Of a stretch of DNA of 62,857 bases, positions 38,473-58,830 are shown piece by piece. Where the stretch lies: positions 1-62,857 of the forward strand of contig JBDGSL010000011.1 in assembly GCA_042217555.1 (NCBI GenBank). Direction: 5' to 3'. Below the pieces are notes generated by a model. It ran no database searches and was not told where the DNA came from. It saw nothing but the letters and a program-made list of their open reading frames with translations. The translations under genes were made by a program, and so were the position numbers. Each line of letters begins with the position of its first letter. Position 1 is the first letter of the stretch. This DNA comes from Candidatus Nanohalobium sp. Its GTDB lineage: Archaea > Nanohalarchaeota > Nanosalinia > Nanosalinales > Nanosalinaceae.

Positions 38473-39576
38473 TCAGATATCGAAGTCGAAGTTTTCCTCG
38501 ATGTACTGTTCGACTTCTTCCTCCGCTTCCTCACGCTTCTTTTGATGCTCAACCAGGAACTCCTCGATTTTCTCTTTCGCTATCTGCTTCAGTTCTCCGG
38601 AAAGCATCTCTCCTGAGGCGTACTCTCTTCTTATCCTCTCTAGCTCGTTATCGTCCTTGATCAGGTGGAATGCTAGAAGTTCGAAGACCATGTCCTCTTC
38701 TATGTCTGCTCCTTTTTCTCTGTGTTCTTCAAGCGAGTCCTGGCCTCCTGTCTTGGCCTGGTCGATCTTCTCTTTTGCTTCTTCCACTGAGTCGGTTAAT
38801 GCGATGTAGCTCTTAGGGTTGCTGCTAGACATCTTTCCTCCCTGCAGCCCTCTCATGAACTTGTTGTAAGTGCTCGCAGGCTTCATGAAATCCTGATCGC
38901 GGTATTTTCTGGCTACATCCCTGGTAAGCCTGATATGAGGATCCTGGTCCACTCCGACAGGCACTACCGTCGGTTTCGGGCCTCCGTTTTCAGGGAACTG
39001 AGGTCGGAGAATATCGGCGTACTGTACCTGTGCTGCTGACATCTTTCCAGGGTCTGCGCTGCCGTAGGTTGCTTCCATCTCGTTCTGGGTCAGGTAGCGT
39101 CCGAACATGGCAGCTCTGGCAAGATGGTCGTTTCCTGCCTCACTCTGGAAGTAGAAGTCAACGTCTTCTAGGTCTATTCCAAGAGCAACGTAGTTCTTCA
39201 GGTACTCCTCTACTACAAGTTCTCTGGCCTCCTCCAGGCTCATGTCTCGTGTGTTGTATGCCTCGATGTCTGCGGCTGCGATCGTTACCTGTGCACCCAT
39301 CTCCTGGTACATCTTTATCTGGTCGACAACACATTTGTGGCCGAAGTGGAAGACCCCTGACGGCATTATGCCTGTTATCATGGCGAAGTCTTCGTTTTCA
39401 TCTCTTGCATCAAGAAGTTCGTCAAGCCCTCTGTGTCCGAAGACTATTCCTCTCCGAATGAACCTGTGGTCAGGAAGCCTGTCCTGTATCTCCTCTATCG
39501 GCTCAATCCCAAACTTATCCATCTTTTCACTGTAGTTTCCAAGTTCAACATCGCCCCAAGGATCAATTTCTGGCAT
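38473..39576 (-). CDS. trpS: Tryptophan--tRNA ligase
   Basis: IDPWG, RRG, TG.MPSG..HFGH, DQDPH, KMSSS. Confidence 0.96.
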   Translation of the reverse strand: MPEIDPWGDVELGNYSEKMDKFGIEPIEEIQDRLPDHRFIRRGIVFGHRGLDELLDARDENEDFAMITGIMPSGVFHFGHKCVVDQIKMYQEMGAQVTIAAADIEAYNTRDMSLEEARELVVEEYLKNYVALGIDLEDVDFYFQSEAGNDHLARAAMFGRYLTQNEMEATYGSADPGKMSAAQVQYADILRPQFPENGGPKPTVVPVGVDQDPHIRLTRDVARKYRDQDFMKPASTYNKFMRGLQGGKMSSSNPKSYIALTDSVEEAKEKIDQAKTGGQDSLEEHREKGADIEEDMVFELLAFHLIKDDNELERIRREYASGEMLSGELKQIAKEKIEEFLVEHQKKREEAEEEVEQYIEENFDFDI

Positions 39577-39602
39577 GTTTATCGGTTCCTCGTATTTTCT
39601 TT

Positions 39603-40244
39603 TTATTCGGTTTGGTTGTGTTTCTGTGCTTTTTCCAGGAAGTTGGCTATCATATCCGGGCCGTATCTCTGGTTGCCGTCTTCACCTGAGCCGCCGGTCA
39701 GCAGGCTTTCAGGATGGAACTGCACTCCTTCTATTGGATAATCTTCGTGTCTCACTCCCATTACGATTTCTTCGCCGTCTTGCTGTGTGGAGGCTGTTTT
39801 TACAAGCTCTTCCGGAAGCTCCACTGCAACAAGAGAGTGGTATCTTCCGCCTCTGAGAGGGTTCTGTAGGTCTTCGTAGACTCCTTCTCCATCGTGATCT
39901 ATTTCAAAGGCTTTTCCGTGCACCGGTTCAGGTGCCTGGCCTATCTCCCCGCCGTATGCATGGACTGCGGCCTCCATACCCAGGCATACTCCTAGAGTAG
40001 GTATCTCTGGCGAAACCTCTCTCAGGATTTCGTTTGTCTCTCCTATGTCCTCTTCATTTGCTGGGTGTCCCGGCCCCGGGCTGAGTACGATCGCGTCGTA
40101 TCCTTCCTCCAAAATCTCTTCCACCGAGATCTGGTCATGGTACTCTACATCAGGTTTGCCATTAACGTAATCTCCGGCCGTTGCGATGTCATCGACTAAG
40201 TTATGCGTGAATGAATCGTAGTGGTCTACTACAAGCACGTCCAT
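39603..40244 (-). CDS. trpG: Anthranilate synthase component II
   Basis: DHYDSFTHNL, SPGPG, LGVCLG, RYHSL, QFHPES. Confidence 0.92.
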   Translation of the reverse strand: MDVLVVDHYDSFTHNLVDDIATAGDYVNGKPDVEYHDQISVEEILEEGYDAIVLSPGPGHPANEEDIGETNEILREVSPEIPTLGVCLGMEAAVHAYGGEIGQAPEPVHGKAFEIDHDGEGVYEDLQNPLRGGRYHSLVAVELPEELVKTASTQQDGEEIVMGVRHEDYPIEGVQFHPESLLTGGSGEDGNQRYGPDMIANFLEKAQKHNQTE

Positions 40245-41797
40245 GTATTCTTCACTCCTTCTTTATCTCCTCCATTGACGGCTTCAAGGCTTTCGACTAT
40301 CGAACCCATCTTCTTCTCGGTCTCTTCAAACTCTTTACCTGGTTCGCTGTCGGCCACTATTCCTGCCCCTGCCTGTACTGTGGCGTTGAAACCTTTTTCT
40401 GTGTCTTCTGCTGTCATTGTTCTTATCGTGATAGCTGAATCCATGGCTCCTGTCTGTGAATAGTATCCGACTGCTCCTCCGTACAGGTTTCTTGGTTCAT
40501 CCTCCTGTTCATCAATAATCTCCATTGCCCGGACTTTAGGCGCTCCTGAAAGAGTTCCAGCAGGGAAAACAGATCTCATAGCATCGAAACGGTCTTTACC
40601 CTCTTCAAGTTCCCCGGTAACTATAGACTCCAGGTGCTGTACAGTAGAGTAAGGAACTACCTGCATAAGCTCATCTACTTCGGTTGTACCTGGCTCTGAA
40701 ACCCTTTTTATGTCGTTTCTTCCCAGGTCCACGAGCATGGCGTGTTCTGCGACTTCTTTATCATTGGCAAGCATCTCACCTGCCTTTCTCCTATCGTCTA
40801 TCGGTGACTGGCCTCTGCCCACTGTGCCTGCGATAGGGTTGGTTTCGACTTTTCCATCTCTAGTCTTTACAAGTGTTTCTGGACTGGCACCCAGTACAGT
40901 TCTATCAGCGAAATCCAGGAAGTACATGTAGGGTGACGGATTTCTCTCCCTGAGATCTTCGTAGACAGTAAGCGGGTCTCCTGTAGCTTCAAACTCTTTG
41001 CTTCGTGAAACCACTCCCTGGTATATGTCTCCTTTCTCCACATGTTCTCCGACTTCTTCGACCATGCCTTCATACTCTTCTCTGTCTCCGCTTCGCCGAT
41101 CTAGGATACTGATCTCGGCCGGTATATCAGCTTCTTCTGTAAGCAGTGCATCGATTACTTCTCCAGCATCTTCTTCTATTCTATCGTACTCCTCAGCTGA
41201 TGATTCTGAAGCTGAGGAAGTAAATACTAACTCCATCTCATCTTCCACATGGTCGTAGGCCAGAAACCTGTCAGCAAAGACAAATACTGACTGTGGCACG
41301 TCTTCCCTATCTACATCCACAGGCTTAGTATCATAAACCATGTCGTACGGATGAAAACCTACCAGTCCTCCCTCAAAAGGCCTGGACTCATCGCAGGAAT
41401 CCTCTATGCTGGCTTGAGGAGACACATCTCTTAACACATCCAGAGGATCATATTCGGAGACTATACTACTGCCTTCAACTGTTTGATCGAAACTCAGGTC
41501 ATGTTTCTCCTGTCTCAGCGATTCTATACTTGCTTCTCCCTCTCCTGTCCTGACAACTGCTGAAGGGTTAAACCCGATAAACGAGTATCTTCCGTGATCC
41601 TGCATCTCGCTGGAGGCATCTATGTCGGCCGTCTCAGCGCTCTCTAACAGAAAGCTGTAACCTGTGTCATCGAACCTGCGCAGAATGTCATAGGCCTCCG
41701 GCGGCGAAATATCCTGATCAAGACTATACCTTACAGGGACTGTTACCCCTTCTTCATTTAGTTGTGCAAACTCCTCTCTATCTATACTAGTATCCAC
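40229..41797 (-). CDS. trpE: Anthranilate synthase component I
   Basis: FLLESA, NPSPYMY, SPETL, PIAGT, EHAMLVDLGRND, GAPKVRAM; GTG start preceded by GGGTG. Confidence 0.92.
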   Translation of the reverse strand: MDTSIDREEFAQLNEEGVTVPVRYSLDQDISPPEAYDILRRFDDTGYSFLLESAETADIDASSEMQDHGRYSFIGFNPSAVVRTGEGEASIESLRQEKHDLSFDQTVEGSSIVSEYDPLDVLRDVSPQASIEDSCDESRPFEGGLVGFHPYDMVYDTKPVDVDREDVPQSVFVFADRFLAYDHVEDEMELVFTSSASESSAEEYDRIEEDAGEVIDALLTEEADIPAEISILDRRSGDREEYEGMVEEVGEHVEKGDIYQGVVSRSKEFEATGDPLTVYEDLRERNPSPYMYFLDFADRTVLGASPETLVKTRDGKVETNPIAGTVGRGQSPIDDRRKAGEMLANDKEVAEHAMLVDLGRNDIKRVSEPGTTEVDELMQVVPYSTVQHLESIVTGELEEGKDRFDAMRSVFPAGTLSGAPKVRAMEIIDEQEDEPRNLYGGAVGYYSQTGAMDSAITIRTMTAEDTEKGFNATVQAGAGIVADSEPGKEFEETEKKMGSIVESLEAVNGGDKEGVKNTWTCL

Positions 41798-41955
41798 TGG
41801 AGACACCCGATACTAACTCAAAACCGGTTTCTATTCTTTTACAGCCAGGGAAAACTGAAGGCGCAGTCGAGAACAAACTTTCTACTCCCTGCACCTCAAC
41901 AACTTCAGAACTATAACTGTATTTCAGCGATTTTCTGCCCTTTTCCCGGACAGTT

Positions 41956-42075
41956 CTAGTGTTTCCAAAAACGTCCACCCTGTCGAAAACTCTGCAAGTT
42001 TTCTCGGCTCGCAGAAAATCTTTCGATTCCCAAGCCCCGAGCTTCCGCCGTAAACTGTTTTACATCCTTTTCCAT
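41956..42075 (-). promoter_or_regulatory. Putative trp leader ORF (39 aa, ending GGRFWKH)
   Basis: ATG ~35 nt after a TTATTTAAA box; shares GGTGGACGYTTT with two other leaders. Confidence 0.6.
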
Positions 42076-42261
42076 GGCAATCACGTAACTAAGTAATAGT
42101 AGAAAAACTTTAAATAACTTTACTAAAGTGATGTTGGGATTAAAGCTATAGCTGTCGCTAGATATCTGTAGAAAGCTCTTTAACATATTAATTCTTGTTT
42201 TACATGAAGTTAAATCTCATGTCGACTATAAGGTAGCTTTATTCTGGAGAAGGGAGGCGCC

Positions 42262-42312
42262 ATGAAAGGTTCTTTACGGAAGAGATTTTTCTGTAAGGTA
42301 CCGGAGAACTAG
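42262..42312 (+). promoter_or_regulatory. Putative orphan leader ORF MKGSLRKRFFCKVPEN
   Basis: RFF motif; no gene directly downstream. Confidence 0.35.
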
Positions 42313-42362
42313 CCCTGGCAGGATGCAGAAAGTTTCCAAAAGCGTCCACCAGCGGTTGACAT
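42309..42362 (-). promoter_or_regulatory. Second putative trp leader ORF MSTAGGRFWKLSASCQG
   Basis: GGTGGACGCTTTTGGAAAC is 18/19 identical to the copy at 41961-41979; CTTAAAG box ~25 nt upstream. Confidence 0.55.
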
Positions 42363-42467
42363 AGGTAATTCTCTGGAGACTGACCTTTAAGTAGTTTTCC
42401 CTCCGTAATGCTTCTTCCTCAGGTCGAGAAGAAAACTTATTTAAGTCTGGACAGTTTTTGCTGGTTT

Positions 42468-42545
42468 ATGGGTGCGGGAATTGAGTCAGTAAAAGGAAGA
42501 AGGTTTTTTTCTGACAGGTTTAGAGGCGGTTTTTTCTATCAGTAG
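42468..42545 (+). promoter_or_regulatory. Putative Phe/Tyr-rich leader ORF MGAGIESVKGRRFFSDRFRGGFFYQ
   Basis: 5 Phe + 1 Tyr in 25 aa; follows a GAAAAC-TTATTTAA BRE/TATA-like site; ~110 nt upstream of the aro operon. Confidence 0.65.
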
Positions 42546-42654
42546 TTTTATTCCCGATGTTTTCTTCAGTCAGAGGTTTGATCTACATGATTCTGAACGA
42601 GAATAGGACGGTGCGTGGAAAAAATGCGGAAAATCTTGAAAGCGGTGTTGCTCT

Positions 42655-43440
42655 GTGACAGGCAAGGAGTTGCGTCTGAACCGGATTAGGGACCCTGAGT
42701 CCGGTAACTTTGTCATCGTTCCGATGGATCACGGGGTTTCTGTAGGCCCTGTGGACGGGCTGAGAGATATCGGGTCTACAGTGTCTGAAGTAGCTGCTGG
42801 TGGCGGTGACGCAGTGCTTATGCAGAAGGGCAACTTCAGAGAGCTGCCGAAGGATAGGGCTGACGAACTGGGTTTTATAGCTCATCTGAATGCGTCTACA
42901 GACCTGGGAGAGCCTAACAACAAGGTAGTAGTTGGGAAAGCCAGGGAGGCTTTGAAGAGAGGTGCTGACGCAGTATCTCTCCACGTGAACATAGGTAGCA
43001 GGACGGAGCCACGTCAGTTAGAGGAACTGGGAGAAATATCCAGAGAATGCGACAGGTTCGGAGTGCCTCTGGCAGTGATGACGTACGTGAGAGGCCCTGA
43101 AGTCGAAAACAGTGTGGACAACATAGCTCATGCCACGCGTGTAGGTGCGGAGCTGGGAGCAGACCTGGTCAAGACATCCTACACCGGAAACCCGGAAGAA
43201 TACCGGAAAGTAGTGGAGGGATGTCCCGTTCCTATCGTTATAGCAGGAGGTTCTAAAGCCGATACGAAGAAAGAGGTTCTGCAGGACATCAGAGACGCAA
43301 TGGACATCGGTGTCAGCGGTACAATGATAGGAAGAAACATTTTCCAGCAGGATGACATTTCAGGCATGGTAGAAGCTGTTTCAGGTATCGTACACGATGA
43401 TAAAACCGTTGAAGAAGCAGTAAATAATGCAGATCTATGA
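42655..43440 (+). CDS. 2-amino-3,7-dideoxy-D-threo-hept-6-ulosonate synthase (class I aldolase, AroA'-type)
   Basis: PMDHGVS.GP, HLNAST, ELGADLVKTSYTG, AGG, GRNIFQ; operon context. Confidence 0.85.
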   Translation: MTGKELRLNRIRDPESGNFVIVPMDHGVSVGPVDGLRDIGSTVSEVAAGGGDAVLMQKGNFRELPKDRADELGFIAHLNASTDLGEPNNKVVVGKAREALKRGADAVSLHVNIGSRTEPRQLEELGEISRECDRFGVPLAVMTYVRGPEVENSVDNIAHATRVGAELGADLVKTSYTGNPEEYRKVVEGCPVPIVIAGGSKADTKKEVLQDIRDAMDIGVSGTMIGRNIFQQDDISGMVEAVSGIVHDDKTVEEAVNNADL

Positions 43441-44528
43441 ACAGGATCTGGCTGAAAGCCGACAAGGGAGACTGGGAAGACAGGAAACCGCTGATAACAG
43501 CAGGCCTGGAAAGCGGAGTAGACGCAGTACTGGTCAAAGAAGACGAAGTGGAGAAACTGAAAGAGCTTGGAGACGTCAAAGCCGCAGCATTAACCAGCAA
43601 ACCCGGAGAATCCAGCGCAGACATACCACTCGTGAAAAAAGAGAGAACTGAAGAATCAGAAACTCTGGAAGAACTTAGACAGGTCGAAGAAGGAGGCCTG
43701 TACGTCGAGATAGACGACAAAGAGAAGGAACGGTTTGCAGCCAGTTCAGCAAGCGAAGTAGATAAACTGATTGCAATAGGAGAGGACTGGAAGATAATAC
43801 CGCTGGAAAATCTTATAGCAGATATAGGAGAAGACACAGAACTTGTGGCCGGAGCTAATTCACCTGAAGAAGTAGTTACAGCCTTTGAGACGCTGGAGAA
43901 AGGTTCTGACGCCGTACTTCTTGACGCAGACGCACCCGGAGAAATCAAAGAAGCAGTTAAAAAACGGGATGAAGCTGCTTCAGAAGAGCTTGAACTGGTG
44001 GAGGCCGAGGTAACGAATGTTGAGCAGACTGAAATGGGTGATAGAGTGTGCGTTGACACGTCTTCCATCATGGAGCAAGGTGAAGGTATGCTTGTCGGCT
44101 CCACATCCAGGGCTCTGTTCTTCGTCCAGGCAGAAACCGCAGAATCACCTTACGTGGCTTCAAGACCCTTCAGAGTTAACGCAGGAGGAGTACACCAGTA
44201 CATCCGTGTTCCAGACGGAGAGACCAAATACCTCAGCGAGATAGAGTCTGGAGACAGAGTCCAGATCATCGATGAAGATGGAGAAGCAAGGAAGGCAGTT
44301 GTAGGAAGAGCCAAAATCGAGAAAAGGCCGATGATGCTGATCGAAGCAGAGTACGAAGGAGAAAAAGCCAAGGCACTGGTGCAGAACGCCGAAACCATCA
44401 AACTCGGAACGCCGGAAGGCCCGAAAGCCGTGACAGAACTAGAAGAGAACGATGAAGTCAAGATCTTTTTTGAGGACGTCGGAAGACACTTCGGGAAAAA
44501 GGTAGAGGAATCACTGGTGGAGAAATAA
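43437..44528 (+). CDS. 3-dehydroquinate synthase II (AroB'-type)
   Basis: WKIIPLENLIA, GDRVCVDT, RPFRVNAG, GRAKIEKRP, QNAETI. Confidence 0.95.
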   Translation: MNRIWLKADKGDWEDRKPLITAGLESGVDAVLVKEDEVEKLKELGDVKAAALTSKPGESSADIPLVKKERTEESETLEELRQVEEGGLYVEIDDKEKERFAASSASEVDKLIAIGEDWKIIPLENLIADIGEDTELVAGANSPEEVVTAFETLEKGSDAVLLDADAPGEIKEAVKKRDEAASEELELVEAEVTNVEQTEMGDRVCVDTSSIMEQGEGMLVGSTSRALFFVQAETAESPYVASRPFRVNAGGVHQYIRVPDGETKYLSEIESGDRVQIIDEDGEARKAVVGRAKIEKRPMMLIEAEYEGEKAKALVQNAETIKLGTPEGPKAVTELEENDEVKIFFEDVGRHFGKKVEESLVEK

Positions 44529-45196
44529 TGGACTTCTCAAAGCCAAAGATAGTCGCAAGCTTGACCTCCGAACTTGAAGAAAAAGCAGAGGAAGCCAGAA
44601 AGAAAGGTGCAGACGCCGTCGAAGTAAGGATAGACCTCTACAACGGAGATATAGAGGACATAAGAGATATTTCACTCCCTGTCATCGTGACAAACAGGCC
44701 TGAATGGGAGGGCGGCGAATTTACCGGAGAGGAAAAAGACAGGATACATGAACTGGAAAAAGCAATGCAGTATGCCGACGCCGTCGACATAGAACTGGAA
44801 GCAGAAGAGTTCCACGAAGAAATACTCAGGAAAGCAGAAAAAGAGAAAGTTAAAGTTATAGTCTCCAGCCACGACTTTGAAAAGACTCCAGAAAAACGGA
44901 AGATGGTAGAGACACTGGAATATGCTGGAAGCATTGGAGACGTCGCCAAGATTGCTGTAAAAGCTGAAAAACCAGATGATTCTCTGAAGCTTCTGGAAGC
45001 AGCCGAAGAAGCGGATGTAAAGATTGCAGCTATGGCGATGGGAGAGCCAGGTTCCTACACGCGGATAGTCTCACCGGTGCACGGTTCGAAGATAACATAC
45101 GCCAGCCTCGGAGAGAAGACAGCTCCAGGACAGCTCAGCGTTGAAGAAGTGGCGGAAGCATGGAGAATGTTGAACATCAGGGAGGAGAAAGAATGA
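44528..45196 (+). CDS. aroD: Type I 3-dehydroquinate dehydratase
   Basis: EVRID, R..EGG, SSHDF..TP, AKIA, APGQ. Confidence 0.93.
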   Translation: MDFSKPKIVASLTSELEEKAEEARKKGADAVEVRIDLYNGDIEDIRDISLPVIVTNRPEWEGGEFTGEEKDRIHELEKAMQYADAVDIELEAEEFHEEILRKAEKEKVKVIVSSHDFEKTPEKRKMVETLEYAGSIGDVAKIAVKAEKPDDSLKLLEAAEEADVKIAAMAMGEPGSYTRIVSPVHGSKITYASLGEKTAPGQLSVEEVAEAWRMLNIREEKE

Positions 45197-46479
45197 AAGC
45201 GAAGATAGGGAACTCGGAAGTTTCCGGAACTGTTTCAGCTCCGCCAAGCAAAAGCTATACTCATAGAGCAGTGCTTGCAGGTCTTTACGCGGACGAGCTA
45301 GAAGTTAAAGACCCGTTAATGAGTGCAGATCCGCGGGCCAGTATCAGATGTGCCGAGAGCCTGGGAGCGGAAGTAGAGGAACTGGAGAACAGTCTGAAGA
45401 TTGAGGGTGTCGATGGAGAACCGGAGACACCGGAAAACATACTTGACTGCGGGAACTCAGGGACAACGCTGAGACTTTTCACAGGTGCCGCTGCACTGGC
45501 AGAGAAAGCAGCAGTTCTGACAGGAGATAAAAGCCTGGTGGAGAGGCCTAACAACCCTCTGATCGAGACGCTCAACGATTTAGGTGCTGAGACGTTCTCA
45601 ACGAAATATGATGGTGCTGCGCCGCTTGTCGTCAACGGAAAGATAAGTTCGGGCGACACCTGCATCGACGGCACAGTTTCATCCCAGTTCATATCTTCCT
45701 TGCTGTTCTGCATGCCTTTGACGGATGAAGGCGGACGGCTGGAGATTGAAGGTGAGCTTAAGAGCCGGCCGTACGTCGATATCACGATAGAGGTGCTGGA
45801 GGACATGGGAGTTGAGATCAACGATTACATGGAAGGTTTCGAGATTCCTGGAGGACAGAGCTATTCCTCAGAGGAGTTCCAGGTTCCTGGAGACTTCTCC
45901 AGTGCCTCTTACCCGCTGGCTGCAGGAGCGCTTGCCGGAAAAGTAAGGGTTGAGAACCTGTATCCCAGTGCACAGGGAGACGAAAGGATACTTGATGTGC
46001 TTGAACGTATGGGTGCTGAGGTCGACTGGAATACCAGGGCAGGAGTTGCAGAGGTTTCTGAAGGAGTACTGGAAGGGATCAAGTTTGATGCGTCCGATAA
46101 CCCGGATCTTGTTCCGACTGTAGCCGTTCTTGCGTCCCAGGCCTCCGGTAGAACTGAGATTGTTAACGCTGAGCATCTGCGTTTCAAGGAGACTGACAGG
46201 CTGGAGGCAATGGCTACTGAGCTGTCGATAATGGGTGCTGAAGTGGAGGAAGGTGAGGATTACCTGGTTATCGACGGGGACAGGTCGGAGCTTGAAGGCG
46301 GTGAAGTTGACGGCAGGGATGATCACAGGGTAGTCATGGCACTGGCCCTGGCAGGACTTGCTGCGGAGGGAGAAACAGTTGTTGATACTGCGGAATGTGT
46401 GGAGATCTCCTATCCTGGTTTCTTCAGCGATCTTGAAGACCTGGGTGTTCAGATTGAGGAGGCTGGAAAAATCACTTAA
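45193..46479 (+). CDS. aroA: EPSP synthase
   Basis: PPSKSYTHR, GNSGTTLR, SSQFISS, R.KETDR, DHRVVMA. Confidence 0.95.
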   Translation: MKAKIGNSEVSGTVSAPPSKSYTHRAVLAGLYADELEVKDPLMSADPRASIRCAESLGAEVEELENSLKIEGVDGEPETPENILDCGNSGTTLRLFTGAAALAEKAAVLTGDKSLVERPNNPLIETLNDLGAETFSTKYDGAAPLVVNGKISSGDTCIDGTVSSQFISSLLFCMPLTDEGGRLEIEGELKSRPYVDITIEVLEDMGVEINDYMEGFEIPGGQSYSSEEFQVPGDFSSASYPLAAGALAGKVRVENLYPSAQGDERILDVLERMGAEVDWNTRAGVAEVSEGVLEGIKFDASDNPDLVPTVAVLASQASGRTEIVNAEHLRFKETDRLEAMATELSIMGAEVEEGEDYLVIDGDRSELEGGEVDGRDDHRVVMALALAGLAAEGETVVDTAECVEISYPGFFSDLEDLGVQIEEAGKIT

Positions 46480-46503
46480 CCATGGTACGGACAGATTAAA
46501 ACA

Positions 46504-47664
46504 ATGAACGGAAACAGTTTCGGCAGGCTTTTTCAGGTAACTACGTACGGTGAAAGCCACGGAGAATCAATGGGATGTATCGTAAGCGGCTGTCCCGCAG
46601 GTTTAGAACTTTCAGAAGAGTATATACAGAGGGAGCTTGACAGGAGAAAACCTGGACAGAGCGATGTAACTACATCCCGGGATGAACCGGACGCAGTCAG
46701 GATAAAAAGCGGTTTACAGGACGGATACACCACGGGCACACCTATCGGAATGGAAATACAGAACCGGGACTCGGACTCCTCAAAGTACCACCAGTTCGTG
46801 ACCGCTCCAAGACCCTCCCACGGAGACTACACATACAGCGCGAAGTTCGGAACACGGAACTGGGGAGGTGGAGGCCGATCATCAGCACGTGAAACAGTTA
46901 ACTGGGTGGCAGCAGGAGCAATAGCCAAGAAAATACTTCAGAAACACGGAATCCATGTAAAGGCTCACACCAGCCAGTTAGGAGAGATCAAAGCCGGAGA
47001 AGTCAGATTTGACAACATGACAGAAGAAGCAGAGAAAAACACGGTGCGATGTGCCGACCAGGAAGCCGCAGAGAAAATGGAGGAAAAACTCAGAGAATAC
47101 AAGAAGGATGGAGACTCCATCGGTGGCGCAGTATACTTCGAAGCACAGGGCCTGCCCACAGGACTGGGTGCACCACGTTTCGACGGCTTCACAGCCAGGC
47201 TCAGCCAGGCACTCGGCTCCATCCCTGCAGTCACATCAATAGAGTACGGCCTCGGAAAAGACGCAAGAACAACCACAGGCAAAGAAAGAAACGATGAATG
47301 GAACTTCAACGAAGAAGGAGATCCAGAACCGGTGGAAAACAGTCATGGAGGGATCCAGGGAGATATAACCTCTGGAAAACCGGTTTACGGAGAACTGACT
47401 TTCCATGCACCGACTTCAATACCCAAGGATCAGAAGACCGTCGACTGGGAGACAGGAGAGGAAAAAGAAGTGCAGGTAACCGGCAGACACGACCCATCAC
47501 TCCCGCCAAGAGCAGTACCGGTAGTTGAATCAGTTCTAAGGCTCGTTATACTGGACTTCATGCTTCTGGCAGGAAGGATAAACCCGGACAGGCTCGACAA
47601 CCAGCCAGGAGAATACGATACAGACTACCATCCTTCAAGCCCGCTCAACAACGAGGGAAACTAG
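46504..47664 (+). CDS. aroC: Chorismate synthase
   Basis: TYGESHG, RRKPGQ, PRPSHGD, GGGRSSARET, GRHDP. Confidence 0.96.
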   Translation: MNGNSFGRLFQVTTYGESHGESMGCIVSGCPAGLELSEEYIQRELDRRKPGQSDVTTSRDEPDAVRIKSGLQDGYTTGTPIGMEIQNRDSDSSKYHQFVTAPRPSHGDYTYSAKFGTRNWGGGGRSSARETVNWVAAGAIAKKILQKHGIHVKAHTSQLGEIKAGEVRFDNMTEEAEKNTVRCADQEAAEKMEEKLREYKKDGDSIGGAVYFEAQGLPTGLGAPRFDGFTARLSQALGSIPAVTSIEYGLGKDARTTTGKERNDEWNFNEEGDPEPVENSHGGIQGDITSGKPVYGELTFHAPTSIPKDQKTVDWETGEEKEVQVTGRHDPSLPPRAVPVVESVLRLVILDFMLLAGRINPDRLDNQPGEYDTDYHPSSPLNNEGN

Positions 47665-47701
47665 ATGAAAACTCAATCTTCAACCACAGGTGTACCACAC
47701 A

Positions 47702-48556
47702 ATGGTTAAAACCGGAAAAGCAAAGGCGCCAGGAGCACTCACAATCATAAACGCCATAGCAGCCCTCAGAGGCTCAGCCTTCGCCATCGACCTCTACACA
47801 GAGGCAAAAGTCGAGATAGACAAGGAAAAAGACGGCATAACCGGCGACATAGAAGGTGACAGCCAGGAAGATACCGAAATGATCGAGAGATGCGTACAAC
47901 TCGTACTTGAAGAGTTTGACATCGACGCAGGAGCACACGTAAGTACGTCAAGCGAGATACCTATGGCCTCAGGACTGAAATCCAGCAGTGCAGCAGCAAA
48001 TGCAGCAACACTCGCCACGCTAGACGCAATTGACGAGGAGAAGGATGAGGTAGAAGCCACCAGGATAGGAGTTCAGGCCTCAGTTGATGCAGGAGTAACC
48101 GTGACAGGCGCCATGGACGATGCCGCAGCATCAATGCTTGGAGGCGTAGTCATGACCGACAACTCAGAGAACAAGCTGGTAAAACACGAGGACTTCGACT
48201 ATCACTGCGCCGTATACATACCGGATGAGAAAGCACGGAGCGTCGACACCGATATCGACAGATCCAAGCTTGTGGACACTGTAGTTGACCAGGCGTTCGA
48301 GAACGCAGTTGAAGGAAACTACGAGGCGGCAATGACTACTAACGGGTTCGCGTACTGCGCAGCACTGGACTTTGAGGAAGAAATAATCATGGAGGCGCTT
48401 GAGCACGCCCCAGCAGCCAGTCTGAGCGGTACAGGACCTTCATTCGGCGCGATAGGAACCAGGGAAGAAGTCGAGAAGGTCGCCGAGGAGTGGCGTGAAA
48501 GGCCTGGAGAAGTCCTTATACTTGAGACAGTTAATGAAGGAGGTGAGAAGCTGTGA
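47702..48556 (+). CDS. aroK: Archaeal (GHMP-family) shikimate kinase
   Basis: IINAIA, SEIPMASGLKSSSAA, TGA.DDA.AS, SGTGP. Confidence 0.93.
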   Translation: MVKTGKAKAPGALTIINAIAALRGSAFAIDLYTEAKVEIDKEKDGITGDIEGDSQEDTEMIERCVQLVLEEFDIDAGAHVSTSSEIPMASGLKSSSAAANAATLATLDAIDEEKDEVEATRIGVQASVDAGVTVTGAMDDAAASMLGGVVMTDNSENKLVKHEDFDYHCAVYIPDEKARSVDTDIDRSKLVDTVVDQAFENAVEGNYEAAMTTNGFAYCAALDFEEEIIMEALEHAPAASLSGTGPSFGAIGTREEVEKVAEEWRERPGEVLILETVNEGGEKL

Positions 48557-49368
48557 AAACGTTCGGACTGATCGGCTGGCCGGTAGAACACTCTTTCTCT
48601 CCGGAGATGCATCACGCAGCCTATGAAGACCTGGAAATGTACGCTAAGTACAGTCTCTACCCTGTGAAAGAGGAAGATCTCGCCGAAGCAATAAAGGGAG
48701 CTAGAGCGCTAGGCATAGAAGGCCTGAACGTGACAGTACCACACAAGGAAGCAGTCAAGGATCTGGAGTTTGTCAAGGTTGACCCGCTGGCCGAGAAGAT
48801 CGGAGCCGTCAACACACTGGACTTCACTGAAGACGGCATCAAAGCCTTTAACACGGATGCGGTCGGCGCCAGAAAAGCACTGGAAAGAGAAGGAGTGGAC
48901 ATAGAGGGAAAAAAGGTTACAGTAGTCGGTGCAGGAGGCGCATCCCGGGCCATCAGCTTTGAACTCGCCGATAAAGGAGCGGAAGTAAAGATAGCTAACA
49001 GGACGGAAGAAAAAGCCTATGAACTTGCGGAAAACGTCTCAAAAGTTGGGAAGGCCTCCGGACACGGGCTTGACGGACTTGAAGATCTGGTAGCCGACTC
49101 CGATATACTCGTTAATTCTACAAGCGTCGGCATGAAGGAGAATAAGACAGTAGTGCCGAAAGAGTATCTTCACCCGGATCTCGTGGTCTTTGATGCAGTC
49201 TACAACCCTCTTGAAACCCGGCTGCTGCGTGAGGCGAAAGAGGTCGGCGCCGAGACGGTTGATGGCGCGTGGATGCTCGTGTACCAGGGTGTGAAAGCTT
49301 TCGAGATATGGACAGGTAGGGAGCCGCCGGAGAACGAGATGAGAGAAGCACTGATGAGGGAGCTTTAA
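48553..49368 (+). CDS. aroE: Shikimate dehydrogenase
   Basis: HSFSPEMH, NVTVPHK, GAVNT, NTD, GAGGAS, MLVYQG. Confidence 0.95.
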   Translation: MKTFGLIGWPVEHSFSPEMHHAAYEDLEMYAKYSLYPVKEEDLAEAIKGARALGIEGLNVTVPHKEAVKDLEFVKVDPLAEKIGAVNTLDFTEDGIKAFNTDAVGARKALEREGVDIEGKKVTVVGAGGASRAISFELADKGAEVKIANRTEEKAYELAENVSKVGKASGHGLDGLEDLVADSDILVNSTSVGMKENKTVVPKEYLHPDLVVFDAVYNPLETRLLREAKEVGAETVDGAWMLVYQGVKAFEIWTGREPPENEMREALMREL

Positions 49369-50528
49369 TCCTTCAGTGCTTTGACCGCGGCAAGTTCCTC
49401 CCCGCTCATGTATCTAACGAACGCTCCTCCCGCTATGGAGACGTGTGAGAAATCATCTAGGTCGTGGCCAAACCTTTGGACCAGTGAAGAAGTGTGGCCT
49501 CCTCCAAGAACAGTGTAGGCATCTGAGCGTGCTATCTCTTCCACTACTTTCCTGGTTCCTTCCGGATAGTCCTCAAAAGCCCCCATTGGCCCTTTCATAA
49601 CCACTGAGTCAGCTTTCCTGATCTCTTCCCTGAACTTTTCCACAGTTTCCACACCTATGTCCCAGGTCATCCCATCCAGAGATTCCTCAACGCTGTGGTT
49701 GCCCGAGTCAGTTCTCAGGTCTTCCGGAAGAACTATTTTCTCTCCGTGTTTCTCCAGCAATCTCTCCAGTTCATGCCTCTTCGAGTCAAGCCCTTTCCTC
49801 TCTATCCACTCCTCTTTCTCTCCAAGACTGTAACCCTCTATTATCAATGCCAGTTCTCCGGGAACACCGCCCATCAATACTTTACCCACTTCTTCAATCA
49901 TTTCATCCATTATACCGATCAAATCCGATGGCTTTTCTCCACCAAGCACAAGCAAACCATCTTCAAAATTTTCCCGGACTTCTGAACAGCTTTCAAGTTC
50001 TTTCTGCATTATAGGCCCGGCATAAGAATCCAGAGTCTCAGTAAATCCTACCAGAGAGCCATGACTTCTATGAGCAGCGGAGAATGCGTCATCAACGTAC
50101 AGATCGAAGTACTGTGAGATCTTCTGAACGAAGAAGTCGTTTGAATGCTGTCGAGGAGAAGCGTTCTGAAGCTCCTCTGACAGGAAGCGGATGTTCTCCA
50201 GCATCGCGACATCGCCCTCCTGCATCTTTGCCACTTTCTCGCCGAGTTCAGGGCCGAAAAAGCTTGGAACGAACTCTACTTCACGCCCCATTGAATCTGA
50301 CAGTATTTCAGCATGTTTTTCCAGTGAAAGAAAGTCTTTCCTCGCAGGTCTGCCCTGATGAGCAACGATAACCACCTTAGCACCTTTGTCACTGAGTTCT
50401 TCAACTGTGTCAAGATATCTTTCAAATCTTACAGTTTTACGTGGCTCTCCATCTTCAACAGGAAGGTTCAAGTCTGTTCTAAGCAGTACACGTTTCCCTT
50501 CCACGTCAACTTCATCCAGCGTTTCCAT
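49365..50528 (-). CDS. pgk: Phosphoglycerate kinase
   Basis: RTDLNLP, HQGRP, LENIRF, DAFSAAHRSH, GGGHT, SIAGGA. Confidence 0.93.
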   Translation of the reverse strand: METLDEVDVEGKRVLLRTDLNLPVEDGEPRKTVRFERYLDTVEELSDKGAKVVIVAHQGRPARKDFLSLEKHAEILSDSMGREVEFVPSFFGPELGEKVAKMQEGDVAMLENIRFLSEELQNASPRQHSNDFFVQKISQYFDLYVDDAFSAAHRSHGSLVGFTETLDSYAGPIMQKELESCSEVRENFEDGLLVLGGEKPSDLIGIMDEMIEEVGKVLMGGVPGELALIIEGYSLGEKEEWIERKGLDSKRHELERLLEKHGEKIVLPEDLRTDSGNHSVEESLDGMTWDIGVETVEKFREEIRKADSVVMKGPMGAFEDYPEGTRKVVEEIARSDAYTVLGGGHTSSLVQRFGHDLDDFSHVSIAGGAFVRYMSGEELAAVKALKD

Positions 50529-50593
50529 GTGTATCAGTATTACGAAGTAATACTTCGCTGGTATTTAATTCTTCCAGCCGGAAAATCTCTTTC

Positions 50594-50816
50594 ATGGACA
50601 TCCGTGAAGCAACTCCAGATAATGCTTCAGGCAGAGAAAAGCGATTTACCGGAAAACTATGGAAAAGATGACAGGATAGTAAATGTGAAGGACGTTGATG
50701 AGGATACAAAGTTCCTGTATGCGGGCTTTGAGAAGTATAGCGAAGAGCTTCGGAACGAGCTGAAAGAAAGATTCGATGCTTTCGAGGTCAATACTATCTA
50801 CGAGAAGGAGATTTAG
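50594..50816 (+). pseudogene. Possible internally deleted GNAT acetyltransferase remnant
   Basis: Starts MDIREATPDNA; another frame ends ..YAGFEKY..IYEKEI. Confidence 0.35.
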
Positions 50817-50938
50817 AGAAGTAATACCGTAAGAGTATTAAGATTACATCCCCTATACCGAGATAGGTGTTGAAGATGACAGATTCAAGATCGGTCAAGC
50901 TTTCCGAAGAATACAGAGATATGTCCAGCAGAGAGATT

Positions 50939-51421
50939 CTAGAAAGATTTAGGAGCAGAGACACCGTTTAAATTCTTTCTACTTCTATCAAGTCCTTCAA
51001 ACCAGCCCAGTTCTCCGATAGTGTACAGCACATCCGCGTTTTCACATACTGCTTTGCTTATTATGTAGCAGTCGTTTCGATGCTTGTCTATCCTGTTGTC
51101 GGTTTCCAGAACCTTTTCCATCGACTTCACAAGTTTTGAAGGCCGAGGCGTCAGCAGAAAAATAAGTTCCTGATCATAGGCACGCTTAAAGTTGAGCAAG
51201 GCCTGCTCCCTTTCGTACTCAGACTCAAACAATGACTGGTCGTGAAGCACGTTATTCACTTCGCCCAGGACATCGTGAGTCGTGGCCGGCAGCCTATTAG
51301 GATCACTTTTCACCTCATGAAGCTTTGAACGCGCCTCCGACGACTTTTCCTTATCCAGTGCCACCTCCAGAAAAACAGCACTGTCAAAAACCTCCAAAGT
51401 ATCAAAGTTTTCCTTCTGCAC
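50939..51421 (-). CDS. PIN-domain protein
   Basis: VFDSAVFL, VLGEV, DCYIISKAV..ADVLYT. Confidence 0.65.
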   Translation of the reverse strand: MQKENFDTLEVFDSAVFLEVALDKEKSSEARSKLHEVKSDPNRLPATTHDVLGEVNNVLHDQSLFESEYEREQALLNFKRAYDQELIFLLTPRPSKLVKSMEKVLETDNRIDKHRNDCYIISKAVCENADVLYTIGELGWFEGLDRSRKNLNGVSAPKSF

Positions 51422-51529
51422 ATCCAGAAATTAACTCTGACCTGTTAATAACTTCCCCCACAGCAAACAGGAAAAACCAACCGATCTAACCAAACGACTT
51501 AAAACTTTCTCACGTAACCCTGCTTACCA

Positions 51530-51577
51530 ATGAAAGGTGGACGTTTTGGACTGCCTGAGACGGCAGGCCTACGGTAG
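51530..51577 (+). promoter_or_regulatory. Putative glyS leader ORF MKGGRFGLPETAGLR
   Basis: ATG ~25 nt after a CTTAAAA box; GGTGGACGTTTT-GGA; 4 Gly codons; CTGCC/GGCAG hairpin. Confidence 0.6.
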
Positions 51578-51643
51578 TATTTCGAGTATTCTAAAACCTT
51601 CTAGAGCTTCTGCTATAAAAATTTCCAGACCGGTGATTTCTTC

Positions 51644-53362
51644 ATGGAGGATCTAAGTGAGAAAGTGGCCGAGCTGTCGAAGAGAAGAGGATTTTTCAGT
51701 CAGACGGCTGAGGCCTATGGAGGCGTCGCAGGATTCCAGACTTTCGGACCTGAAGGTGCAGAACTCAAAAGAAACATAGAAAACAGCTGGAGACGCAAAT
51801 TTACCCGTGAACTAGGACACAGGGAGATCGAAGCACCTACTATCATGCCTGAAGCTGTTTTTGAGGCTTCAGGACACCTGGACGGGTTCGATGATATGAT
51901 AATCGAATGTCCTGAGTGCGGAACAAGTTCACGGGCAGACCACATAGTAGAAGATAACACCAACGTAGAGGAGGCTGAAGCATTCTCAAAAGAGAAGATC
52001 GAGAAACTGTTCGAGGAACATCAACTGCAGTGCCCAAACTGTGGAGAGAACCTGGCCGGAGAGAAGGTCAAAGACTTCAACCTGATGTTCGAGACCAACA
52101 TCGGCCCAGGAAGCAGCAACCCGGGCTACCTGAGACCGGAGACAGCCCAGGGCATCTTCACCGAGTTCCCACGTTTCAAGGAGTACATGAGAAACCAGCT
52201 GCCGTTCGGAATAACGCAGATCGGCAAAGCATACAGGAACGAGATAAGTCCTCGCCAGGGACTGGTAAGAGTCAGAGAGTTCACCCAGGCAGAGCTTGAG
52301 CACTTCATCGACCCCGAGGAAGACGAACCAGACATTGAAGACGTTAAGGATGTCGAGCTAAAGCTTTATCCTGTATCCGAGCAGCAGAAGGAAGATGGCG
52401 AGTATCTCCATCTAACTGTCGAAGAGGCCGTCGAGCAGGAAGTCATCGAGTCGGAATGGATAGCCTACTACCTGGGATACGCCAAGCAGTGGTACAAACA
52501 GATAGGAGTTGACATGGACCGTTTCAGGTTCAGGCAGCACCTTCCCGACGAGTTAGCGCATTACTCGACGGACTGCTGGGATGCAGAATCCGATATAGGC
52601 GGCGGGGAAGAAGACTGGCTGGAGATAAGCGGTTTCTCCTACAGAGGTTGCTACGATCTCTCCAAGCACGACAAGTACTCCGAGGACGACTTCACCGTCT
52701 TCAAGGAGTACGACGAGCCGAAAATCGAGGAGGAAGCCAAAGTAAATCCGGACATGGGCTACATTGGACCGGAGTTCGGCGACAAAGCCGGCGAAATAGT
52801 GGATAGGCTTCAGGAGATGGCTGAAGAGGAACCTGAGGTCTTCGAGCAGGACGAAGTTACTGTAGAAGTCAATGGAGAAGAGTTCGAGATCCCTTCCGAA
52901 AAATGCAACTTCAGCGTCGAAAAGGTGAAGAAGTCAGGAGAACACATCACTCCTCACGTCGTAGAGCCTTCATTCGGTGTGGACAGAGTACTTTACACAG
53001 TGCTAGTCCATGCCTATGATGAGGACAAGGTTGACGGCGAGGAAAGGACTGTTATGCAGTTCAGCGAAGAGGTTGCTCCAACAGAGGTTGCCGTATTCCC
53101 TCTTATGGATAAGGAAGGACTCGGTGAGAAGGCCAGAGAAGTAGCTGACATGCTGAGAAATGAAGGCTATTCCGTCAAGTACGATGACACGGGCAACATC
53201 GGACGTCGTTACAGGAGACAGGACGAGGTCGGTACACCTGTATGCGTGACAGTTGACTACGAGACCTTGGAAGAAGAACCTGAGACAGTCACTGTCAGGG
53301 ACCGTGACTCGACGGAGCAGGAGAGAGTCAAGACGTCGGAACTGGCCGAAAGGCTCCGGTAA
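51644..53362 (+). CDS. glyS: Glycine--tRNA ligase (alpha2 type)
   Basis: KRRGF, SGH, LRPETAQG, YRNEISPR, REFTQAE, EPSFGVDR. Confidence 0.96.
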   Translation: MEDLSEKVAELSKRRGFFSQTAEAYGGVAGFQTFGPEGAELKRNIENSWRRKFTRELGHREIEAPTIMPEAVFEASGHLDGFDDMIIECPECGTSSRADHIVEDNTNVEEAEAFSKEKIEKLFEEHQLQCPNCGENLAGEKVKDFNLMFETNIGPGSSNPGYLRPETAQGIFTEFPRFKEYMRNQLPFGITQIGKAYRNEISPRQGLVRVREFTQAELEHFIDPEEDEPDIEDVKDVELKLYPVSEQQKEDGEYLHLTVEEAVEQEVIESEWIAYYLGYAKQWYKQIGVDMDRFRFRQHLPDELAHYSTDCWDAESDIGGGEEDWLEISGFSYRGCYDLSKHDKYSEDDFTVFKEYDEPKIEEEAKVNPDMGYIGPEFGDKAGEIVDRLQEMAEEEPEVFEQDEVTVEVNGEEFEIPSEKCNFSVEKVKKSGEHITPHVVEPSFGVDRVLYTVLVHAYDEDKVDGEERTVMQFSEEVAPTEVAVFPLMDKEGLGEKAREVADMLRNEGYSVKYDDTGNIGRRYRRQDEVGTPVCVTVDYETLEEEPETVTVRDRDSTEQERVKTSELAERLR

Positions 53363-58679: not shown

Positions 58680-58830
58680 GCCGGGGTAGCCAAGTGGCCA
58701 AAGGCGACGGACTCAAGACCTCAAGTTCTCAAGCCATCTGGGGAGAGAACGAGGACTCAGAAGCAAGTCCTTAACGAGCTTCGATATCCGTTCCCGCAGG
58801 GGTTCGCAAGTTCGAATCTTGTCCCCGGCA
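58680..58830 (+). tRNA. tRNA-Leu(CAA) with a 68-nt intron at 37/38 (58718-58785)
   Basis: GCCGGGG TA GCCAAGTGGCCAAAGGC G ACGGA CT CAA G^A TCCGT, variable arm, GCAAG TTCGAAT CTTGT CCCCGGC A. Confidence 0.93.

Follow-up and report, generated by a model that had tools for sequence, protein, structure and literature searches.

A short leader cassette upstream of synthetase and biosynthesis genes in nanohaloarchaea: a candidate +1 frameshifting sensor of tRNA charging

In the prfB gene a Shine-Dalgarno (SD) sequence lying 3 nucleotides (nt) before the slippery CUUU has been described as acting like a 'compressed spring' (PMC10798248), and in the ermC leader telithromycin causes a frameshift and subsequent translation into the spacer, which switches on ermC (PMC5009743). 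Of the described cases of frameshifting in a leader open reading frame (ORF) that activates the next gene by translation of the spacer, we take the ermC leader to be the nearest. The same review describes hungry codons, as in the yeast Ty1 element and in starved E. coli: when an aminoacyl-tRNA is scarce, the A site is not filled and the tRNA in the P site moves by +1. In its passages on starvation frameshifting the natural use of such events is called unclear (PMC5009743). Termination followed by re-initiation at ATGA overlaps is described for Haloferax (PMC6728339), and a 2021 review of archaeal recoding gives one proven -1 case, with +1 events only suggested for a virus and Mg-chelatase (PMC8211752). 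Here we describe a nucleotide cassette in short leader ORFs upstream of aminoacyl-tRNA synthetase (aaRS) and amino-acid biosynthesis genes in a 62,857-nt stretch of DNA from Candidatus Nanohalobium sp. (GenBank assembly GCA_042217555.1, contig JBDGSL010000011.1, positions 1 to 62,857; hereafter the window) and in its relatives, and propose that it may sense charged tRNA by means of a +1 frameshift. The window is contig 3 of a 1.31-Mb assembly that comprises 88 contigs and is 94% complete. We know of no T-boxes and no established leader-peptide attenuator in archaea, and to our knowledge it is largely unknown how these organisms match their aaRS and biosynthetic genes to tRNA charging. A literature search, which had subscription-only papers outside its reach, recovered no description of the motif or the mechanism.

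The 12-mer GGTGGACGYTTT is present in three copies in the window, where 0.01 are expected, and none of 100 dinucleotide shuffles had three or more (Table 1). All three lie in frame within short ORFs that follow TATA-like boxes, each leader ATG being 22-25 nt behind its box; a first-pass annotation of this DNA had pointed to these in-frame GGT GGA CGY TTT stretches, and the DNA bears it out for every copy. The codon directly after the motif, hereafter X, is TGG in both copies upstream of the trpE-trpG-trpS operon and GGA in the copy upstream of glyS, as had also been noted there, and the genes start within the range of about 65-160 nt given for them: glyS begins 66 nt downstream of the stop of its leader and trpE about 150 nt after that of the proximal Trp leader. 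The latter leader has in-frame ATGs at 42186 and 42075, with a TTTAAC box at 42214-42209 lying 22 nt upstream of the first. The GGTG-type SD motif that was said to precede the downstream genes is indeed present before glyS, but it overlaps with the spacing of a TATA-like box and its role is ambiguous.

Among 41 related genomes the 12-mer was found in 30, including 22 of the 24 that belong to the same family, with 1-9 copies per genome of about 1 Mb, whereas a control with the reversed pattern gave numbers near zero; in the phylum as a whole it is present in 44 of 70 genomes. A search of one genome each of 185,579 prokaryote species with the 18-mer ATGAARGGTGGACGYTTT recovered 72 stretches, 44 of them in records titled Nanohaloarchaea, Nanohalobium, Nanosalina, Nanohalarchaeota, Asbonarchaeaceae or uncultured archaeon, and the remainder in bacterial-titled records, scattered and nearly all single matches, as by chance. 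No second lineage with the exact 18-mer was found among these species. The first-pass annotation had considered that the motif might be conserved out of frame or without an ATG, and this is not what is observed: 93 of the 100 copies of the 12-mer in the 41 genomes have an in-frame ATG 2-90 codons upstream with no intervening stop. Four of these 93 (L008, in gdhA, L012, L039 and L054) are located inside long ORFs, and these four and the seven copies lacking an ATG, mostly in more G+C-rich sister families, look like chance copies. Ordinary proteins of the source genome with the tetrapeptide G-G-R-F (C15:21582, C58:16761, C60:6391) encode it as GGA GGN MGN TTC, so that GGTGGA...TTT is used in none of the three sites, which fits avoidance of the cassette inside genes, the sample being tiny.

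The identity of X tracks the gene behind the leader. We searched 93 ORFs downstream of copies of the 12-mer (the first set) with the NCBIfam models, and in all 50 instances in which an aaRS was identified X was cognate to it: GGA before glyS (10), TCC or TCT before serS (12), ACC, ACA or ACT before thrS (9), TAC or TAT before tyrS (5), GTA before valS (5), TGT before cysS (4), TGG before trpS (3), AAG before lysS (1) and TTC before pheS-alpha (1). In a second set of 18 new loci, taken from the matches to the 18-mer, 13 downstream genes were identified at E <= 1e-28 and all were cognate, among them 12 of 12 aaRS; the other five loci are short fragments and had no match at this threshold. A sample chosen independently of the motif was obtained by searching the phylum with the first 200 residues of GlyRS and reading the 30 best loci, two of which lie at contig edges. 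A Gly codon occupies X in 27 of the 28 assessable glyS loci (GGA in 26 and GGG in one), the remaining locus (L177) being without a cassette. Thus the earlier proposal that X is the sensor codon holds in samples chosen by motif and by protein alike, and the possibility, raised along with it, that X is uncorrelated with the downstream gene finds no exception in its favor among the identified synthetases. The match between X and the genetic code extends to at least 13 amino acids, and on the strength of the sequence comparisons the leaders are very probably translated, amino-acid-specific sensor ORFs.

Beyond the synthetases, TGG leaders were found before trpE, trpB and an IMPase-like gene followed by trpC, as well as before genes for a hisC-like aminotransferase, M20 deacylases, and GNAT-like, GCS2-like and PPDK_N-like proteins, while leaders with ATT or ATC precede ilvA (2), a family of 376-aa proteins (3) and unidentified ORFs. 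In the first set no target was identified for four Val, two Ser, one Phe, one His and several Ile copies, and no family assignment was obtained for the 376-aa Ile-controlled protein, the 285-aa His-controlled protein, those of 358 and 365 aa, and the 434-aa protein on contig C81. Cassettes also occur in series: the leader of the hisC-like gene at L034 contains a GGCF-W unit within the +1 frame of the unit ahead of it, three Trp units precede trpB at L064, and two Ser units lie 58 nt apart at L089, an arrangement that recalls tandem T-boxes.

Further units in the source genome include MKGGRF-T before a ThrRS fragment at a contig end, recognized by tblastn, MTLSTKGGRF-V (GGT GGC CGT TTT GTA) before valS, and MSKAITGGRF-I... 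before a gene whose 376-aa product fits no known family. The variant MNKVSTTGGYV-P-P (GGTGGATACGTT CCA CCA) is present in two copies (contigs C9 and C83), and the gene downstream of the copy on C9 encodes ProRS; other units are of the types GERF-I plus GGCV-L, GGCV-L and GEYV-H. No such leader was found in this genome at serS, tyrS, cysS, pheS or the thrS copy of the window. The assembly has two ThrRS genes, the one in the window (10667-12631) without a leader and the fragment (C70:6486-6758) with the MKGGRF-T leader, which could be a housekeeping and inducible pair or reflect a second strain in the bin. For the leader-controlled ProRS (C9:10863-12083) the best-scoring models are of the bacterial type, NF006625 and TIGR00409 (proS_fam_II), rather than archaeal/eukaryotic. 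A candidate Glu leader, MAGGRFERK followed by a stop, lies at a contig end.

What is conserved in these leaders is RNA, in the form GGUG(G/A)A-YRY-(U/G)UU-X, with both nucleotides and spacing kept. A search for M-K-G-G-R-F with fully degenerate codons recovered 54 sites in the 70 genomes (one in the control), which use GGT in 54, GGA in 53, CGY in 54 (39 CGT and 15 CGC) and TTT in 54 cases, with TTC in none, while the Lys codons AAA and AAG are about equally frequent. The combination GGT GGA CGY TTT is used in 53 of the 54 leaders against a joint expectation of 0.005 from codon usage (in long ORFs of the source genome Gly is encoded by GGT in 24% and by GGA in 40% of cases, Arg by CGY in 17% and Phe by TTT in 32%). 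The peptide, on the other hand, varies: glyS leaders encode GGRF, GGCF, GECF, GGYF or GEYF, second Trp units GGRV-W, GERF-W, GGCF-W or GEHF-W, and the proS leader GGYV-PP. The first-pass annotation had read GGRF as a peptide context for stalling and had suggested synonymous variation as a test; the synonymous sites turn out to be frozen and the peptide variable, and on account of the peptide variants a role of GGRF in nascent-peptide arrest was rejected. In three relatives the 3' end of the 16S rRNA is ...GGAUCACCUCCA, so that RGGUGG can pair with UCACCU of this tail. The GGUGG of the cassette is separated from UUU by only 3 nt (ACG in the Gly leader), whereas the GGTG of ordinary genes lies 7-10 nt from the start codon.

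Downstream of the cassette, it is the +1 frame that leads to the gene. We located the first stop after UUU in each frame of 46 synthetase leaders and, with L010 dropped (n=45), compared the positions with 2000 shuffles of each spacer in 200,000 simulations. The first +1 stop falls within -12 to +25 nt of the gene start in 44 of 45 aaRS leaders, against 5.9 expected and a simulation maximum of 18; the same interval holds the first stop of frame 0 in none of the 45 (6.1 expected) and that of frame +2 in four (5.9 expected). A -1 frameshift, which would enter the same register as +2 and so reach the start in only four of 45 leaders against 5.9 expected, was rejected. Frame-0 stops lie 24-150 nt upstream of the gene in the 46 leaders, 19 of which show an exact ATGA or GTGA overlap of the +1 stop with the start codon, nearly all others having the two within about 12 nt. 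All serS leaders have the junction ATGCTTGA. At the exceptions, L010 and L017, the called start lies upstream of the start in the family model, and the likely true starts read ATGA and TTGCCTGA. The rule is repeated in further loci and in the 27 glyS loci, in two of them after correction of the start call. In the window, the +1 frame of the Gly leader ends with TAA at 51654-51656, 10 nt past the first base of the glyS ATG, and that of the proximal Trp leader with TAG at 41789-41787, 17 nt past the first base of the trpE GTG at 41806. A hairpin-like insert of about 50 nt (gaaacttctg...cagaaactc...tttcgga) is seen in the spacers of L029, L031, L067 and C9:10760-10830, that is in different genes and genomes, like a small mobile repeat, and the +1 frame is open across it.

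Elsewhere the +1 frame takes other forms. In 12 of 12 Ile leaders it ends in runs of Ile, Leu and Val codons (...ISIILLIILIL or ...IISIIGIIG, followed by the stop), and another module of these leaders, KGGRVLQ, which is read in frame 0, feeds into that +1 frame. One Val leader that also has two modules ends, in +1, in ...VPVLLLVAVTVSVLV and a stop, a His leader contains GGRV-H within its own +1 frame, and in distal Trp leaders the +1 frame ends in ...ISS-x-KN-x-SW-R/Q...; the tail ...SS-x-KN-x-SW of the distal Trp leader of the window, with its Trp codon, is common to relatives. In several proximal Trp units the +1 frame coincides with that of the gene, encoding IMPase-like (295 aa), GCS2-like (471 aa) and GNAT-like (238 and 242 aa) proteins, and it is fused to long ORFs in L023, L068, L078 and L081, while in other proximal Trp units it ends at the gene start (at -2 in L073 and at -4 before trpS in L063). 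The unrelated GNAT, IMPase-like, GCS2-like and PPDK_N-like proteins, which continue the +1 frame, share an N-terminus of the form (V)[DN][VAI]FG that corresponds to the +1 reading of the cassette. An open +1 frame up to the gene start points to frameshifting combined with translational coupling.

X and the synonymous variation of the cassette (AAR, CGY) belong to frame 0 and the meaningful downstream frame is +1, and hence the simplest link between them is a +1 shift at UUU whenever decoding of X is slow. From these observations we infer a frameshift, its coupling to the gene and the direction of the response. The promoter would yield an mRNA beginning at or near the ATG of the short leader ORF, with the cassette a few codons in. 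GGUGG would pair with the anti-SD tail at a distance of 3 nt from the P-site codon, a shorter spacing than genuine start sites have, and UUU (or GUU) would serve as a weakly paired, slippery P-site codon. When the X-tRNA is plentiful, X would be decoded in frame and the ribosome would stop 24-150 nt before the gene, which is then not reached; when it is scarce, the A site would remain empty, the peptidyl-tRNA would slip by +1 and reading would continue in that frame. In aaRS genes this frame would carry the ribosome across the spacer to end on the start codon, in an ATGA or within about 12 nt, where the terminating ribosome would re-initiate; in several Trp-controlled genes it would be the protein's own frame; and in leaders of the Ile and Val type it would lead into the tail of Ile, Leu and Val codons as a putative second stage of sensing. 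Such regulation would have the right sign, as scarcity of the charged tRNA raises the synthetase or pathway. We therefore regard a prfB-like +1 frameshift at a hungry codon, coupled to re-initiation, as the probable basis of charged-tRNA sensing in these leaders. The wider proposal of a regulon-wide 'frameshift T-box', in which a portable 15-nt cassette would turn the charging of any chosen tRNA into a +1 shift that delivers ribosomes to the start codon or reading frame of the matching gene, we favor with somewhat less assurance. Under the frameshift interpretation all conserved features would have a role, apart from the identity of the spacer codon.

The idea put forward in the first-pass annotation, stalling without any frameshift, draws on a short leader ORF with a cognate codon; a ribosome that pauses at X when its tRNA is uncharged would alter RNA folding or uncouple transcription, such that the gene is transcribed or its start exposed. 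A scan of the window with Rfam at gathering thresholds gave no match except one tRNA. This match, of 151 nt and 44 bits at 58680-58830, is not reported by ARAGORN and is probably an intron-containing archaeal tRNA. For 11 serS leaders the RNAalifold consensus did not exceed 4 bp, and the folding energy of the 42 nt from UUU was no better than that of shuffles (z about 0) in Ser, Thr, Tyr, Val, Cys, Lys and Phe leaders, with a single leader each for Lys and Phe. The glyS leaders do have a hairpin, of 6-11 bp in all 27 (mean z -2.5), which begins within the sensor codon or at most about 10 nt after it and is kept by compensatory changes (GACUGCC/GGCAGUC, GACCGCG/CGCGGCC, GACUGUCG/CGACAGUC and others), and a ribosome stalled at X would cover its 5' arm. 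For seven glyS leaders RNAalifold recovered the local hairpin together with a proposed long-range AARGGU:ACCYU helix; over 128 leaders this helix showed a weak covariation (odds ratio about 3) that is confounded by G+C content, and it was not relied on. The runs of Ile, Leu and Val codons in Ile-type leaders are also such as occur in classical attenuators, though they lie in the +1 frame. Against stalling stand the single sensor codon in frame 0 and the fact that in the Ser, Thr, Tyr, Val, Cys and Lys leaders no hairpin, terminator or alternative pairing was found to be conserved; as no conserved terminator or antiterminator structure was found outside glyS, classical attenuation as first suggested is not upheld. 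Stalling further leaves unaccounted for the use of TTT and never TTC, the frozen Gly and Arg codons, the variable peptide over an invariant RNA, and the +1 frame that ends on the start codon or continues into proteins, and we consider it unlikely.

The presence of a GUG in the +1 frame of the cassette allows another arrangement, in which two upstream ORFs overlap: the +1 ORF would start at the GUG of GGUGGAC and be coupled to the gene, and the frame-0 leader would occupy or clear that start. This GUG is always present, and the proteins that continue the +1 frame can be read as GUG-started, with the N-terminus M-D-V-F-G. However, a ribosome stalled at X would sit on the GUG, and hence starvation would shut the genes off, the wrong sign for synthetases, trp and ilv. 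Moreover, in leaders of the MK type just 7 nt separate the GUG from the predicted 5' end, it is not preceded by an SD and would face competition from the terminal AUG, the AAR and CGY variation is synonymous in frame 0 but changes amino acids in +1, the cognate codon belongs to frame 0 alone, and the preference for UUU over UUC is left without a reason; taken together these points make independent initiation at the GUG quite improbable. That the cassette is a DNA or RNA site for a regulatory protein, or a T-box-like tRNA-binding riboswitch, with the reading frames being incidental, would suit the conservation at the nucleotide level, synonymous sites included, and the second conserved element in the spacer, but can be set aside as very improbable given an in-frame ATG that lies at a variable distance (2 to 19 codons) yet always in frame 0, a triplet right after the motif that obeys the genetic code for 13 amino acids, the failure to find a conserved structure, or an Rfam match in the window besides the one tRNA, and a codon only 6 nt from UGGA, too close for both tRNA ends to be reached.

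Several observations weigh against a frameshift coupled to re-initiation. In the distal Trp leaders and in the biosynthetic leaders for Ile, Val and His, a gap of 44-150 nt separates the end of the +1 frame from the long ORF that comes next, so that coupling alone does not suffice and another step is needed, perhaps a stall at the Trp codon or within the Ile/Leu run. Perfect re-pairing of tRNA-Phe after the +1 slip requires U or C as the first base of X (Trp, Ser, Tyr, Cys, Phe, His); with Gly, Val, Thr, Ile or Lys at X a wobble mismatch results, and the GUU variants of the P site mismatch at the first position. The YRY spacer codon, mostly CGY, and the A after GGUGG are strictly kept and have no role in the simple model, and the GUG inside GGUGG in the +1 frame leaves room for an independent start. 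Two leaders of Ile/Leu type (C45:1892, which is L203, and L014, the types being GGCV-L and GGRF-I plus GGCV-L) precede, in two genomes, a 120-aa ORF with chorismate mutase and prephenate dehydratase, which are not obviously cognate. A TATA-like box is found 22-30 nt upstream of the gene start in 18 of 46 aaRS genes, and its leaderless distance suggests a second promoter, which may give a basal, unregulated mRNA. The conserved AAAACC element of the spacers, described below, has no place in the proposed mechanism, and the related genomes are non-independent samples.

That element, (Y)AAAACC(N1-3)TTCTAR, is present in 37 of the 46 aaRS spacers against 5.4 expected, 32-72 nt upstream of the regulated start codon, and is missing in the sister families f3 and f4. 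It was rejected as a general promoter (BRE) element, since it is not enriched upstream of TATA boxes genome-wide, and as a conserved +1 peptide, since its phase differs between families. It covaries only weakly with the AARGGU found at the leader's 5' end. With regard to promoters, TTTAA peaks at -32 to -28 and GGTG at -14 to -11 from the start codons across the source genome, and the presence of both peaks indicates that leaderless and SD-led genes exist side by side; the boxes before the three leader ATGs of the window agree in spacing with the TTTAA peak. One search for sequencing runs gave DNA contigs of a single salt-lake study and no RNA, a result silent on expression. Upstream of the leaders a TATA-like 5-mer occurs at -36 to -24 in 29 of 46, against 7 of 46 in a control window, and the leader mRNAs are probably leaderless, beginning at or near the leader ATG. 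The TATAAAAA box before glyS is tentatively taken as a second promoter that would yield a leaderless glyS mRNA.

Table 1. Positions in the window of the cassettes, leader ORFs and associated features
Feature	Position	Strand	Remarks
GGTGGACGYTTT, first copy	41968-41979	-	proximal Trp leader
GGTGGACGYTTT, second copy	42339-42350	-	distal Trp leader
GGTGGACGYTTT, third copy	51536-51547	+	Gly leader
TATA-like box TTAAAA of Gly leader	51499-51504	+	25 nt upstream of leader ATG
Gly leader ORF, frame 0	51530-51577	+	MKGGRFGLPETAGLR, then stop; MKGGRF-G-LPETAGLR, then stop
Gly cassette GGUGGA-CGU-UUU-GGA	51536-51550	+	SD-like GGUGG, spacer codon, candidate slippery UUU, predicted Gly sensor codon GGA
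Hairpin GACUGCC...GGCAG	51548-51569	+	begins in the Gly codon at X
Gly +1-frame ORF after UUU	51549-51656	+	open across the whole spacer
Conserved spacer element AAAACCTTCTAG	51593-51604	+	
TATA-like box TATAAAAA	51614-51621	+	22 nt upstream of glyS ATG
glyS, glycine--tRNA ligase	51644-53362	+	predicted regulated gene; TIGR00389, E 3e-148
TATA-like box TTAAAG of distal Trp leader	42390-42385	-	
Distal Trp leader ORF, frame 0	42309-42362	-	MSTAGGRFWKLSASCQG, then stop; MSTAGGRF-W-KLSASCQG, then stop
Distal Trp cassette	42350-42336	-	
Distal Trp +1-frame ORF	42239-42337	-	ends in ...ISSVKNLSWRLPSPE, then stop
Proximal Trp leader ORF, frame 0	41956-42186	-	ends in ...RQGGRF-W-KH, then stop
Proximal Trp cassette	41979-41965	-	
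Proximal Trp +1-frame ORF	41787-41966	-	59 codons
Predicted Trp-regulated operon	38473-41806	-	trpE 40229-41806, trpG 39603-40244, trpS 38473-39576
Archaeal-type shikimate operon	42655-49368		divergent from the trp leaders

In dozens of genomes, and for at least 13 amino acids, the amino acid that a gene serves can be read from the one codon that directly follows a fixed cassette, which makes the proposal directly testable. If correct, it would represent the first regulatory +1 programmed frameshift in Archaea and the first case in which frameshifting at hungry codons serves naturally as a metabolic sensor, with the autoregulatory logic of prfB applied to sense codons, re-programmable by the swap of one codon and sometimes cascaded in tandem. 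It also bears on annotation, as several proteins with GTG starts (M-D-V-F-G...) may be trans-frame fusions and gene callers miss the short leader ORFs. As the cassette is small and modular, it is a possible codon-specific sensor of tRNA charging for haloarchaeal genetics.

The cassette leaders share with trpL, the pheM-pheST attenuators and T-boxes the tuning of each operon by the charging of its own tRNA, the tandem units before trp and the shortness of the leader. They differ from attenuators of the trpL type in having neither a run of regulatory codons in frame 0 nor a terminator/antiterminator, and from T-boxes (RF00230) in having no tRNA-binding RNA fold and no match to Rfam families of this kind in the window. 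Overlap of a stop with the start of the next gene, exact in 19 of 46 aaRS leaders, resembles the ATGA coupling of Haloferax volcanii and E. coli, but there the upstream partner is an ordinary gene whereas here the frame would be reached only by frameshifting. In ermC, too, ribosomes shift frame within a short leader ORF, but there the trigger is a ketolide, a drug acting on the ribosome, and not tRNA supply, no SD-like stimulator is involved, the gene is exposed by unfolding of the mRNA and not by a stop/start overlap, and a single gene is concerned. The yeast Ty1 site (CUU-AGG-C) sets a fixed ratio of two products, whereas the nanohaloarchaeal cassette would be a dedicated sensor with the codon chosen for each gene. 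The likeness to prfB, as far as that system is described in the source cited above, extends to a P-site codon that ends in UU and has an SD-like sequence 3 nt before it, an A-site codon that would be slow and whose decoding depends on the regulated product, a short frame-0 product that would be discarded, and a functional reading in +1 that for some Trp-controlled genes would be the protein itself. Unlike in prfB, the A-site position of the cassette holds, in place of UGA, a sense codon for any one of at least 13 amino acids, what is sensed would be a charged tRNA and not a release factor, the +1 frame is mostly a bridge to the start of a separate gene, and the host is an archaeon; hence we view the cassette as a variant of the prfB type of site rather than as a member of it.

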